Shown: piece by piece, positions 6,424-58,259 of the stretch | Position numbering within the stretch: position 1 is the first letter of the stretch | Layout of the letters: each line of letters begins with the position of its first letter | Assembly: GCA_951406725.2 (NCBI GenBank) | Contig: OX597819.1 | Coordinates: 65,472,001 to 65,536,000 of the forward strand | Source: Octopus vulgaris | Taxonomy: Eukaryota | DNA length: 64,000 bases | Reading direction: 5' to 3' | Program-made: the position numbers and the translations under genes | Notes under the pieces: generated by a model | Seen by the model: the letters and a program-made list of their open reading frames with translations, nothing else | Database searches by the model: none | Told to the model about the DNA's origin: nothing

Positions 6424-6745
6424 TTGCAGCCTGGAAGGTGTTTGTAAGCCATTTAAGAAACACACAAAAACCGTTACATTCACTTCAACATTTAAATTTA
6501 ATTTGCCAAAATATTTTCGTCGCTTTGAGACCGCGACCTGTTCACTGACAAAAATATCGTGCTAACAGGTCGCAGTCTCAAAGCGACGAAAATAGTTTGA
6601 CAAATTAAATTTAAATTTTGAAGTGAATCTAACGGTTTTTGTGTGTTTCTTAAATGGCTTATAAACACCTTCAACGCTGCAACTGTTTTCGTTCCAGCAC
6701 ACGATCTCAGATCAAGTCACTTGCTATGCAAGTACATCTCTGTAA
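6424..6745. mobile_element. Fold-back Penelope-like terminal element (about 119-bp inverted arms)
   Basis: 6424-6542 is the near-perfect reverse complement of 6564-6682 with a 21-nt loop. Contains a hammerhead motif and is flanked by TA repeats. The Penelope origin is inferred. Confidence 0.75.
6502..6552 (-). ncRNA. Minimal type-I hammerhead ribozyme, G3-C8 variant
   Basis: Minus strand reads UUUGUCA GUGAACA G GUCGC GGUCUCAAA GCGAC GAA AAUAUU U UGGCAAA: 7-bp helix I, 5-bp helix II, palindromic helix III. Confidence 0.7.
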
Positions 6746-6779
6746 CTATATATATATTTATATATATATATATATGTAT

Positions 6780-6844
6780 ATTGGTAAAAACAGTAAGATA
6801 ACAAAAGAAAGAAAGAGACCTCAATATTATGTAAATAGAGGAAA
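6780..6844. mobile_element. Fragment of the 22.4-kb Penelope-like family, cut by the Helitron
   Basis: Reverse-complement match to about 22635-22695 (GTAAGA.AACAAAAGAAAG..AGACCT..TTATGTAAATAGAGGAA). Confidence 0.7.
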
Positions 6845-7239
6845 TCTTTATATATAAAAGTGAGGTTGTGTGTCTGTCTCCAACGATTTAGATTCCTAAC
6901 TACTCCCACATTTTGCGGTGCAGTTTAACCAAAACCGGGTATCTTATAGTCGTGATTCATATCGAGACCGTCTGGGTATTAGCGCGCGTCTACGATGAGT
7001 CTACGGTTTAAAAAAAAATTTACCATCAATTTTTCCCATTTTTAATCCATTTTTGACATATATAAGGGAAGTAACTCTCTAAAATTTATTATTAAATCTC
7101 AGAACGTAAAAAGCTACAGTAACACCCCTCCCCCTTTGTGGTTAGCCATATTGAGATGGCTATTATACTTTACATCTCTAAAAATGCTTATATAATTATT
7201 TCCCTTACAAACCCGAGCAACGCCGGGCGATACTGCTAG
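6845..7239 (+). mobile_element. Non-autonomous Helitron
   Basis: A|TC 5' end, subterminal hairpin CCCGAGCAACGCCGGG, CTAG|T 3' end, no target-site duplication. Second copy at 15385. Confidence 0.88.
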
Positions 7240-7749
7240 TATATATATATATGCAAACACATGCATACGCAAGCTTAAATTCTTATGGGTAGTTTTGTGT
7301 GAGTTGTGTACATTAACATGAGATAGCAGTTCGACAAGAAGACACCGATAGAATATCGGTCCCAAAAGAGAGGGACATAACACATACCAGATTTAAGAAG
7401 TGTTTTAGCGATTATTTTAACGCGACCATAACTGTCAAGGGTGTGCTCTAGAATGGCCGTTATCCAATGGCTGAAATAAATAAAATATATAAGTTAAATA
7501 TATGCACCCATTCGTCCCTGCCTTATTCTTTTTGTATAATTCAAAGCCGTGTAAGTTTATAGAATTCCAAGCCATATACCTTGCTGCAGCTCATATATCA
7601 TTGTCAGGCTTAACTGATATGTCGATAATTTAGCATTACATTTTAAACGCCATTTTAAAAATTAATTCGTCGGAGATATATGTTCAGCAAGTGGTTATAG
7701 ATTATACACTGTATTGAAACCTAAACAGTCTGCTTCTAATAGATTCAAT

Positions 7750-8110
7750 TCAGGTTACTCAGGTTAGGAGAGACGAGTTTTATCAGGTGCTGCTGAAATG
7801 TCTCAAGAAAGGTGATCGAAGTGCAGTACAGGTTTCTGCAGAAGTTTTTATTGAAATAAAACGTAGTGGATGATTGTTATTAATCGGAGTGGATCATCGT
7901 TAAGCAAACGCCGTCTTGAGATAAATATAGTCAACATATGGGCAGGCCAGCCCCTGGATATATTTGAGGAGTAATGAATGCTGATTCGAGAAGTGATGTA
8001 TAGGTGTGATTAGATACCTGTTTATCTATACGACAAATCAGTCCTGCACGACTTCACAATTCGAATGGTGCCGATGATCCCGAGATAAAGGACGTTAGAG
8101 TGACTATGAT
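7750..8110 (-). mobile_element. Highly decayed LINE RT fragment (CR1/Jockey-like)
   Basis: Minus-strand peptides NVLYLGII and LLKYIQGLACPYVDY resemble KYLGI and YK.LVRP.LEY. Confidence 0.4.
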
Positions 8111-9639
8111 ATTATCACGTTAATCCATCTGCCGAAAGAGATCTATAACCACTACCAAGGACTGTCGCAAGGGCTTCGTTTCCCGCAACTAAGAAATTGG
8201 CGGTAGGAAGTGTGATTTAAACTAAAACAAAAGATAGACAGAAAATAATTTTGAACAGCATTTTGTCATTTAATCCACCATTCAGATTTTTTATCTTTTT
8301 TTTTACCAGAAATGAGGAAATTCGAATTCCATCTCTGTGAGATTTGACGCTCAAACGATTCTGGTAAGCTACCAACATAACATTCATCCTTAGCAATTGC
8401 ACAGTGCCGCATATTCGGAGGAAGAAGCTTGCTGAATGAACTGGCCACAGTACTTGATTCATACTTATTACAGCGATCACTAAAACACGAAAGGTAAATC
8501 TAGCCAAGTTCCTGTTTGAACTCAAAACATAAAACGTTCGAATATTGTCTCGTGACTTATTGTCAGACGCACTGACGATTAGGCCATTCCATCACAATTA
8601 AAATGATAATAGAATGAAAGATGTGTTTCTCTGTCTGCCCGTCCGTTACATTGTATCTATCGAACAAGATCATCTTTAAACAGCTTATCCAAAGAAACGA
8701 GGTAAAAACTGTTGGATTTATTTAAGTCATTTATTGAACAACAAGGAAAAATTAAGGTTTGTGTTTATTTTTCTAGCAGCCATTGGAATTGGAATGTAGA
8801 ATGTAAACGTAAAGTGTTGGAAAACAAAGCATTAGACATAGTGTCAGGTGCTCCTATAATTCTTTAAAGATAATAATCCCTGTTTTATTACGATTGAAAG
8901 CCTTCCATCCTACCTTTACCCCCTGCTCACAAGAGCCCTACTTTAAAATTACTTTTTAGACATGCATAACATGTCCAGCAGATTTTGTGTAATCTGGCTC
9001 AATCTATCGACATATTTTTGAGTTGTACTTGTTTGGGAAGTTATATTATATAAGATCGTATCTTGTGACTTCTAAAACAATTAGATCGTGATAGCCATTG
9101 CATTCATCAAATGTATACATAGACTGTTATATTTACTTTTAATTTAATATTTTTTCATAATACTCTACTTTATTAGGTACCAACGTTCTTTGTCGAACAA
9201 ATAATAACGTTTTATTGATTCTCTATTTCACCGTCCTTATAATAAATCTATTTCACTGGTTTTACAACAATGTTGCGGCAGTTTGCTTAAATTTCCATTC
9301 TTGTTTGTAGAGGAATATTGATTTTTCACATAAGCACAAGGTATCAAATTTGGTGTAGGGCTATAGTGATATATAAGAAGATATGGTACCTTATTTTATC
9401 GAGCTGGAAAGCTGAAGAGTAAGGTTGACCTCAATGATTATTTAGTAATATTCAATAACGTTAATTAAGAACCAGCGAGGTGGTAGGACCGGCTAGATAT
9501 AATACCCTAATTTCCCTCTTGTTAGAAAATGATATATTTCACAAAAAGTAATTACATAAAAGTATAATACAATCTTAGACTCACTAAAATTCATCTGCAA
9601 TTCGGTTGATAGAGAATCCGTTTAATACAGAGCTGTCTG

Positions 9640-56127: not shown

Positions 56128-56522
56128 TAGGCGCAGGAGTGGCTGTGTGGTAAGTAGCTTGCTAACCAACCACATGGTTCCGGGTTCAGTCCCACTGCGT
56201 GGCATCTTGGGCAAGTGTCTTCTGCTATAGCCCCGGGCCGACCAATGCCTTGTGAGTGGATTTGGTAGACGGAAACTGAAAGAAGCCTGTCGTATATATG
56301 TATATATATGTGTGTGTTTGTGTGTGTGTGTCTGTGTTTGTCCCCCTAGCATTGCTTCACAACCGATGCTGGTGTGCAAAAAGAGACCGATAGAATAAGT
56401 ACTGGGCTTACAAAAGAATAAGTCCCGGGGTCGATTTGCTCGACTAAAGGCGGTGCTCCAGCATGGCCGCAGTCAAATGACTGAAACAAGTAAAAGAGTA
56501 AAAGAATAAAAGAATAAAAGAA
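56128..56522 (+). mobile_element. SINE family A, young copy
   Basis: Near-consensus, with a small internal deletion. Confidence 0.95.
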
Positions 56523-56684
56523 AATACACATAAAGATATATACACATATGTGTTGCGTGTTTCCGGGGTATTTTATCAGACGTGCAGTCAAGGTGTGTAT
56601 ATTGGTCTTCGTTTATTTGTACCCCAGTTCACTTACATACCATCCGCTGCTCTGTTACACAATAACAGTTATGAGAATGGTTTC

Positions 56685-57140
56685 AAATTTTTGGCACAAT
56701 CCCAGCAATACGCGTGGGGGAAGAGGTGTAAATTGATCAGATCGAACTCAGTACTCAAATCATGCTTATTTCATCGACCCTTAAAATATGAAAGACAAAG
56801 TCAACCTGAAAGGAATTTGAAATACAGGAACCGCAGCAGCAGCAACAACAACTACTGCTACTACTACTACTACAAAAACAACAACAACAACAACAACAAC
56901 AACAACAACAACAATAATAATAATAATAATAATAATAATAATAATAATAATAATAATAATGATGATGATGATGATGATGATTGCCATGTTTGCCACAAGG
57001 GCAACTTTGGGGAGGGTACTGAGTCGATTACATCAACCCCAGTGAGTAACTGGTACTTATTTAATCGACCCCTAAAGGTGAAAGGCAAAATCGACCTCGA
57101 TGGAATTTGGACTTAGAACGTAGCGACGGGTGAAATACTG
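56685..57140 (-). mobile_element. Two partial SINE family B copies separated by trinucleotide repeats
   Basis: Cores at about 56685-56830 and 56985-57140. Confidence 0.8.
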
Positions 57141-57142
57141 AC

Positions 57143-57670
57143 CAGTGCGCTGGACTTGACAGAGCAAAAAATTTGTACGAATATAAACCCGAAAGTATCA
57201 TCGAAAATGATAATGCAAAGATCCTATGAGATTTAATGATGCAGTACGACCATGAGATAGAGAATAGAAAGCCAGACAGTCTTAAGTAAGAAAGAAAGAA
57301 AACTATGCTGAATCATAGCTATAGAATGCCCAGCTCACAACAACATATGCGATAAGGAAGAAAGAAAAGTCGAGGGATATGACAGGTTAGCTTGGGAAGT
57401 TAAGCACTTATGTTCGATGAAAAAGGTAGCAGTAGTACCAACAATTGTCAGAACCCTGGGAACAGTGAGCAAAAATCACGAGAAGTATGTGAAACAAATA
57501 GGGGCTGCGATAAGGGTGGAGCACTTGCAGAAAACAGCATTGCTTGGAACCGCCCGAATACTCCGGATGGTGGTCGAAAAATAAGAGGTGTTACCTTAAT
57601 TCACTGGTAGTGAACAGCTGACACCGTAGTACATATCCAGCGTTAGAAGCTGTGCAAAGACAATGAAAAT
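57143..57670 (+). mobile_element. R4/Dong-type non-LTR 3' end
   Basis: YEYKPESIIENDNAKIL*D, NRKPD, LQKTALLGTARILRMVVEK*, then a 3'UTR and a long (TAA)n. Confidence 0.9.
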
Positions 57671-58224
57671 GACAATAATAATAATAATAATAATAATAAT
57701 AATAATAATAATAATAATAATAATAATAATGATAATAATAATAATATTAATAATAATAACAACAACAACAACAACAATAATAATAATAATAATAATAATA
57801 ATAATATAAAAATAATAATAATAATAATAATAATAATAATAATAATAATAATAATAATAATAATAATAATAATAATAAAAGCTGAGATGGTAAATGTTTT
57901 TAATTTTCATTCCTTTCATGAATTTATCCCTTTTTGTGTTTCTAGCACTACGCTTCCTTATTTGGAAGCCTTTTATTATATTTCTATACGAAAAATATAT
58001 AGTCTAATGACTATCTCGTCTTTTGTGCTAGGCCACTGGTAATAATAATTTATTTTATTACCCTATTTGATTATGTTTATATATATATAATTATATATAT
58101 ATAGATATATATCGTAAATCCCACCCAACCCAAAAAAAACGAAGAACAAACATATAAAAACAACAACGCGAACACGTGGTATATGTAAAGTATTAGCAGA
58201 CGCTCAGGGAAGGCATGAAAAGTG

Positions 58225-58259
58225 GTTTTACGTTTCGAGCAAAGCTCTTCTTCAGAAAC
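58225..58259 (-). ncRNA. Canonical minimal type-I hammerhead ribozyme within a probable Penelope-like terminus (about 58140-58345)
   Basis: Minus strand reads GUUU CUGAAGA A GAGC UUU GCUC GAA ACGU A AAAC. All core residues present; palindromic ACGU helix III. Confidence 0.82.

Follow-up and report, generated by a model that had tools for sequence, protein, structure and literature searches.

Minimal hammerhead motifs with differing 3-8 base pairs in Penelope-like elements of Octopus vulgaris

A 64,000-nucleotide stretch of the Octopus vulgaris genome (assembly GCA_951406725.2, contig OX597819.1, positions 65,472,001 to 65,536,000; hereafter, the window) carries four families of short repeats, A to D, that contain motifs with the layout of the hammerhead ribozyme. 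Our analysis makes it highly probable that these motifs are minimal type I hammerheads in the pseudo long terminal repeat (pLTR) ends of Penelope-like elements (PLEs), that family A carries the start of a PLE open reading frame (ORF), and that its hammerhead likely still cleaves itself slowly. The families differ in the base pair at core positions 3 and 8, which is G3-C8 in A, U3-A8 in B and C3-G8 in C and D.

Hammerhead motifs exceed chance expectation

Both strands of the window were scanned with a descriptor of the type I minimal hammerhead in which N3, N7 and N8 were unconstrained. The strict descriptor returned three sites, 6545(-) GUGAACA, 22537(+) CUGAAGA and 58255(-) CUGAAGA, and a relaxed form that allowed one helix II mismatch also returned 42919(-) UUGAAAA. 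Positions 3 and 8 formed a Watson-Crick pair at all three strict sites and at all four relaxed ones. A preliminary description of this DNA had named shuffled sequence as the comparison on which its proposal could fail; block-wise dinucleotide shuffles (n = 100) contained on average 0.21 sites, or 0.05 if only Watson-Crick sites are counted, and none reached the three strict sites of the real sequence. Permuted decoy cores (120 of 755), run on the real window so that its hairpins were retained, gave a mean of 0.04 Watson-Crick sites with the strict and 0.08 with the relaxed descriptor, with a maximum of 1.

A Watson-Crick 3-8 core together with GAAA and UH is present in families A, C and D and in the B copy at 42919, whereas each of the remaining four B copies has damage to the core or layout. 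Descriptor, alignment and folding show helices I and II, with G10.1-C11.1. All five places named in the preliminary description carry the layout it claimed, and its observation that helix III is palindromic, a feature that permits dimer formation, holds in all four families. It was also right that three of the four families have an extra purine after A9: the nucleotide between 9 and 10.1 is present in A (G), B and D (A) and absent from C, where instead a single nucleotide is left unpaired on the 3' strand of helix II. In none of the four families (four cases only) can H17 form a Watson-Crick pair with N3, which fits the 3-17 trap that has been discussed (PMC3884650). In an Rfam search, no hammerhead family was among the best 150 of 226 matches for the window.

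Family A carries a G3-C8 core

The family A hammerhead was recognized by descriptor, decoys and folding at 6502-6552 on the (-) strand. It consists of a 7-bp helix I, the core G3-U-G-A-A-C8-A9 (G3 = 6545, C8 = 6540) with the extra G, a 5-bp helix II, GAAA, a 6-nt palindromic helix III and U17 at 6509, and the predicted cut lies at 6509|6508. The minimum free energy structure of the monomer is helices I and II, at -13.2 kcal/mol. The motif sits in a left arm (6424-6563, (-)) that is a near-full short copy reaching to the fixed 5' end of the family, with (TA)n outside it. Self-comparison identified an inverted arm at 6564-6682 (+), 5'-truncated at core A6; compared with its own reverse complement, 6424-6682 is an 89% match. 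On one side only, comparison of the flanks revealed a 64-nt extension, or tail, at 6683-6746 (+), followed by (TA)n. Because the second arm begins at A6, G3 of family A is legible only once in the window.

The fixed 5' end is an imperfect inverted copy of the family A 3' terminus (6553-6563 against 6424-6437). On the antisense (cDNA) strand, both mismatches between these ends become G-T wobbles, and the ends could thus anneal during second-end joining.

Families A and B covary at 3-8

The U3-A8 consensus of family B comes from five copies, none of them intact, with U3 in four of the five and A8 in all five. Window comparison identified a damaged U3-A8 copy with G6 at 16018-16054 (-) and a partial copy at 16135-16167 (-) that has the core UUGAAAA and stops after helix II. 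The copy at 16166-16202 (+) reads CUGAAAA, with a C3·A8 mismatch (C3 = 16169), and has lost one letter in the helix III/H17 run. The copy found by the relaxed descriptor at 42886-42922 (-) has an intact U3-A8 core (U3 = 42919) and one U·U in helix II. Finally, the copy aligned at 45293-45333 (+) has U3, A8, a U4>C change and an insertion in GAAA, and its helix I has the same four pairs as family A. The consensus UUGAAAA previously assigned to 16166 and 42886 therefore holds for the second of these copies and not for the first. A further short remnant, the 3' half of a B/A-like hammerhead, lies at 43136-43160 (-).

When two A and four B rows were aligned, both sides were changed at 3-8 (G-C versus U-A) and at one helix II pair (C-G versus U-A). 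Across the alignment, 94% of 36 cells were paired, a level reached by 2 of 500 shuffles, and two of six pairs showed double changes. As read from these sequences, A and B are sister lineages with covariation at 3-8 and within helix II, and the proposal that retroelement lineages here carry covarying G3-C8 and U3-A8 cores is borne out for A versus B, 3-8 being paired in both.

Both families with canonical C3-G8 cores were recovered by the strict descriptor. The family C hammerhead (22532-22592, (+)) has a long helix II and a 9-nt near-palindromic helix III, and lies in an inverted pair at 22411-22628 with a one-sided 64-nt extension at 22629-22692, as determined by self-comparison and from the flanks. 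The family D hammerhead (58225-58259, (-)) has the extra A after A9, an ACGU helix III and A17.

Family A leads into the start of a Penelope-like ORF

Over the last 110 nt, the alignment score of A with B was reached by none of 500 shuffles, while A-C, A-D, B-C and B-D did not stand out from their shuffles in this way and C-D was borderline (11/500). The 3' parts of A and B, read in a common frame, share 10 of 22 residues, 6 of them through synonymous codons, and four of the five changes between B and its 36-kb copy are synonymous. A profile of the A/B peptide compared with 1.84 billion proteins gave three matches, of which P0001 (labelled Octopus bimaculoides) was the best (E 9e-8, residues 1-25). 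Of the other two, P0002 is similar to the B peptide and P0003 is a repeat protein that is unrelated. The B peptide used alone found no homologue, and Atlas searches returned only scores under 0.9.

Homology search from P0001 led to P0004 (labelled O. sinensis) and P0005 (labelled O. vulgaris). In tblastn, family A at 6654-6746 (+) matched the N-terminus of P0004 at 28 of 31 residues (E 2e-12), which places the start of the element ORF, 31 codons of it, in this interval; the predicted cut precedes the ATG by about 57 nt. Family B has a homologous ORF start at 16259-16340 (+), including a one-sided tail (about 16285-16340) and followed by (TA)n. A decayed B-like inverted insertion at 36285-36504 (-) has kept the ORF-start and tail region and agrees there with the 16-kb copy at 13 of 14 residues. 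P0004 itself (LOC115227545) joins the N-terminal 220 residues of the element to a methyltransferase domain and is probably a gene-prediction fusion.

The relatives of this ORF indicate what kind of element it begins. P0005 finds 29 proteins of 680-1222 aa, and in two of these the N-terminus aligns with residues 11-223 of P0004 (E 2e-18 and 8e-26). All 29 contain RYVDD, and 25 contain CX2-5CxxC after the reverse transcriptase (RT), the position of the linker that precedes the endonuclease in Neptune and Nematis; the C-terminus of their consensus has the GIY-YIG-type features Y..C..C, YxGET and RxxEH. A single ORF with RT followed by GIY-YIG is thus seen by motifs in these relatives, outside the window. 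The same arrangement of RT, cysteine linker and GIY-YIG-type C-terminus is described for Neptune and Nematis, together with (TA)n targets, inverted 5' copies and tails like those found here, although the relatives of A read DKS where that description gives DKG (Craig 2021, PMC8557442). Naiad was rejected as the source, since its GIY-YIG lies N-terminal to RT while the endonuclease motifs of the relatives are C-terminal; five short family motifs were also not found in the Naiad supplement.

On these features family A belongs to the pLTR ends of PLEs with a C-terminal endonuclease, of the Neptune or Nematis type, and B likely does too, an assignment made by motifs; C and D may be placed among PLEs by layout only. 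The linked GIY-YIG and RT ORF that had been put forward as a check on the proposal is accordingly found for A, by way of the relatives of P0004 and P0005, and likely for B, through its homologous peptide. Among candidates for related elements, 0 of 32 in viral contigs and 1 of 15 in genome contigs proved to be one; the single case is a PLE ORF related to the relatives of A (L017:11-2295) on a 2.7-kb contig of a bacterial metagenome-assembled genome, which is probably host DNA.

Inverted pairs as probable insertion scars

Complete inverted pairs are present for A (6424-6682), B (about 15921-16284) and C (22411-22628), and both outer ends of each pair are element 3' ends. In all three, one arm is longer by 56-64 nt and the extension then meets (TA)n; on the opposite side, A and B are again bordered by (TA)n and C by (GT)n. 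The B extension is found again at 36.3 kb and is therefore part of the element. An inverted 5'-truncated copy with a tail at one end is typical of PLEs (Craig 2021, PMC8557442), and all three complete pairs have this structure. We rejected the idea that the pairs form cleaving dimers in place, as one arm is antisense: since the pairs are inverted, one transcript does not contain two sense copies. We infer that the pairs in the window are insertion scars rather than cleaving dimers. A 66-nt near-perfect palindrome (88%) at 23351-23416 has no hammerhead layout.

The most likely pathway to these structures is as follows. A tandem or read-through transcript would carry the hammerhead about 57 nt upstream of the ATG, as observed in family A. 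Pairing of two copies by way of their palindromic helix III, or help from the protein of the element, would lead to cleavage after U17 and so separate one unit from the next, as in the schemes of Cervera 2014 (PMC4209133) and Frangieh 2024 (PMC11167929), from which this step is drawn. Reverse transcription would then start at two sites inside the ORF start, with both strands of a nicked (TA)n target serving as primers. This would yield the observed structure, in which the pairs are inverted and 5'-truncated and only one side bears a tail. Genomic copies are mostly short fossils.

Family A is abundant in sequencing contigs

To judge abundance and variation, we used sequencing runs in the form of contigs. 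Of the runs listed, 20 of 24 contain part of the stretch, under four organism labels, and four runs (three organism labels) were aligned on the left arm of A. Contigs on this arm numbered 13,900, 9,227, 3,798 and 964 in the four runs, and in the largest run the summed depth reached a plateau near 4 million, compared with 27-67 for single long contigs. This suggests roughly 10^4-10^5 copies of family A, as estimated from summed depth, which is no copy number.

The helix I wobble at 6506 is repaired in the majority of the family. Other listed changes fall in loop II, at CpG sites (helix II, G12) and, at 2% in one run, in helix III. The variant table is blank within about 20 letters of alignment ends; known differences that it omits are those at 6431 and 6444 and, at 6533-6535, the CpG partners. 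One joint sequence contains a second A copy, which again has G3 and C8 but differs at N7, so that G3 is present in two of two readable copies and C8 in three of three, the variant table not extending to positions 3 and 8.

The majority of A copies share a fixed end about 13 letters past 6553. It lies in sequence that repeats the other end in inverted orientation, imperfectly (10 of 12 letters), and unrelated AT-rich flanks follow. Taken alone, these ends would suit a miniature inverted-repeat transposable element or other short inverted-repeat DNA element in which the hammerhead layout arose by chance. This explanation is largely refuted by the link to the ORF, as the 3' end of A is the coding start of an RT-family ORF; in addition, the tail is one-sided, the inverted arms vary in length, with opposite-strand joints at the 5' end making up 9 of the 15 joints listed of 28, and no decoy core gave more than one Watson-Crick site. 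We regard it as very improbable.

In 5 of the 9 opposite-strand joints listed, the other side falls at 6504-6511, beside the predicted cut; the helix I strands provide microhomology at 6504-6511, so this clustering is only a hint.

The very high copy number, the fixed ends and the unit of roughly 140 bp also raise the possibility that short A copies are retrozyme-like non-autonomous elements that cycle through a small circular RNA made by the hammerhead. A few joints lead from the 5' end back to 6428-6432 (orientation not given), and Li et al. 2026 (10.64898/2026.07.22.740005) derive retrozymes from PLE pLTRs. Against this, the window contains no direct A tandem, the motif has the minimal and not the canonical type I form, and the unit retains coding sequence and a PLE-type tail. 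For the same reasons (coding remnant, minimal motif and no direct A tandem in the window), family A was rejected as a non-LTR retrozyme, which is a non-coding tandem with a canonical type I motif. We consider a retrozyme-like cycle unlikely, and well below the reading of A as a PLE end.

Scans for the A and B motifs gave no hits in metagenome contigs or in viral contigs. The 16 matches in prokaryote genomes were dismissed as chance, as none, when inspected by eye, combined helix I, palindrome and UH.

Is the family A hammerhead active?

An engineered C3G/G8C change partly restores cleavage in a PLE hammerhead (PMC11167929), and in full pairwise mutagenesis G3-C8 was the sole rescue at that motif (PMC9901934), so family A is likely active but slow.

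The main rival to activity is that the family A hammerhead is a dead or near-dead relic without a role: G3-C8 would have arisen in one master copy, cleavage would have been unneeded, and the family would have spread anyway. Published work lends this some weight, as PLE insertion proceeds in vitro without cleavage (PMC11167929), minimal PLE hammerheads are very slow even as dimers (PMC4209133) and rescue by G3-C8 is only partial (PMC11167929). In our own data, the lowest-energy dimer is not the double hammerhead, and genomic copies retain the whole motif, with loose ends at 6552-6555, so the template would mostly have been uncut RNA. What a relic explains poorly is the pattern of change and retention: both 3-8 partners have changed to a new Watson-Crick pair, a helix II pair has gone from C-G to U-A between A and B, and the other core letters, G10.1-C11.1, the palindrome and the 7-bp helix I are all retained. 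That the A and B master elements kept a Watson-Crick 3-8 pair while both letters changed would point to selection on the active tertiary fold. We consider the relic unlikely, though a more serious contender than the alternatives above, and favour PLE ends whose G3-C8 hammerhead would still cleave slowly.

Several observations weigh against this interpretation. Cleavage is dispensable for insertion in vitro in the system of Frangieh 2024 (PMC11167929), where RNA-seq ends at the cut are also absent. The double-hammerhead fold of A (-24.2 kcal/mol) is less stable than two monomers (-26.4) or the best dimer (-29.4), and that of D is far above its alternative (-6.7 versus -19.7 kcal/mol). G3 of family A has been read in two copies only, and, because the variant table is blank near alignment ends, positions 3 and 8 lie outside its reach. 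The covariation is that of two families with one event per pair, and one of the two G-C cells is a misaligned junction letter. On the protein side, no PLE RT or endonuclease was found within the window, no protein link was found for families C or D, and no minimal hammerhead is present in the 390 nt after the L017 ORF. Pfam matches in 12 long relatives were below the cut-off (RVT_1, E 0.0016 in 1 of 12; GIY-YIG, E 0.011 in 1 of 12), and the domain call therefore relies on motifs as described by Craig 2021 (PMC8557442).

Comparison with published hammerheads

The motifs resemble in most respects the minimal PLE hammerheads of Cervera and De la Peña 2014 (PMC4209133), with which they share the type I layout, the short helix I, the nucleotide between 9 and 10.1, G10.1-C11.1, the palindromic helix III and neighbouring copies on opposite strands. 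That work also reports a U3-A8 variant in Schistosoma mansoni PLEs, with about 1,300 matches that a first descriptor had missed, and its Sm4 family has the same UUGAAAA core as family B. Among the 56 motifs aligned in its Fig. S3, 53 have C3, two have U3-A8, one has U3·G8 and none has G3, in contrast to the G3-C8 of family A; that alignment has no cephalopod row. Natural covariation at 3-8 is likewise described by Perreault 2011 (PMC3088659), whose text names U3-A8 only.

A close parallel for the placement of the motif is PAc (Poseidon of Anolis carolinensis; Frangieh 2024, PMC11167929), in which the hammerhead also lies at the ORF start inside the pLTR, the target is AT-rich and the tail is ascribed to two RT start sites. 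The two systems differ in that the PAc cut falls 26 nt after the start codon, whereas that of family A is predicted about 57 nt before the ATG, and in that tails are 30-40 nt in PAc and 56-64 nt here. G3-C8 is an engineered mutant in PAc and natural in family A.

The preliminary description had suspected that a CUGANGA search would miss these variants and that they might be undescribed. Craig 2021 (PMC8557442) searched with the core fixed on CUGANGA. U3-A8, and the failure of a CUGANGA descriptor to find it, were already in PMC4209133, which also has the additional nucleotide that follows A9, the palindrome of helix III and pairs on opposite strands; only G3-C8 may be new. In print, we found G3-C8 only as a laboratory mutant, and a natural G3-C8 hammerhead was not found in the literature passages covered by full-text search, a scope outside which the Lünse 2017 survey and figures lie. 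A full-text literature search combining Penelope-like, octopus and hammerhead found only Craig 2021 (PMC8557442), and the words 'hammerhead' and 'ribozyme' have no occurrences in the main text of a 2026 Octopus vulgaris repeat annotation (PMC13282606). What may be new is thus a G3-C8 family that occurs naturally and in very many copies, next to a sister lineage with U3-A8.

Other features of the window

Pieces of a broken non-LTR retrotransposon lie at 34291-35767 (-) and 57312-57581 (+), with an RVT_1 match (E 1e-6) at 34894-35226 that PLE proteins do not match; these pieces look Dong/R4-like. A broken transposase occupies 770-1750 (+) (Pfam Transposase_1, E 4e-24). Inverted pairs of an abundant SINE-like (short interspersed element) repeat, which presumably resembles octopus SINEs, are present at 42274-42878 and 1493-2689. 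A 187-aa open frame of ordinary composition at 11068-11628 (-), possibly a host exon, has no Pfam match, and a Pfam search of 88 of the 463 open stretches of the window returned no GIY-YIG and, as its one RT match, that at 34894-35226.

Significance

It is possible, though we put it forward tentatively, that an octopus PLE lineage of roughly 10^4-10^5 copies uses a natural active G3-C8 hammerhead while its sister lineage uses U3-A8. The mechanism would be unchanged and no new class is defined, two of the three 3-8 pairs having been known before. The function of PLE hammerheads has been called unclear (Craig 2021, PMC8557442). Because the 3-8 pair exists only in the active fold, sister lineages in which both letters have changed and the pair has been kept are evidence that catalysis is selected. 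Moreover, G3-C8 takes two transversions through an inactive step, and if active it would imply in vivo selection on the catalytic fold of a PLE ribozyme. If this is true, family A would be nature's version of the classic compensatory double mutant, and inverted arms that start beside the predicted cut could be fossils of RNA that had been cleaved. Entire families would then have escaped searches with a core fixed on CUGANGA or YUGANRA, perhaps in some elements that are now called hammerhead-less. A natural, high-copy G3-C8 family would offer a ready test substrate, and ribozyme searches should leave 3-8 free.

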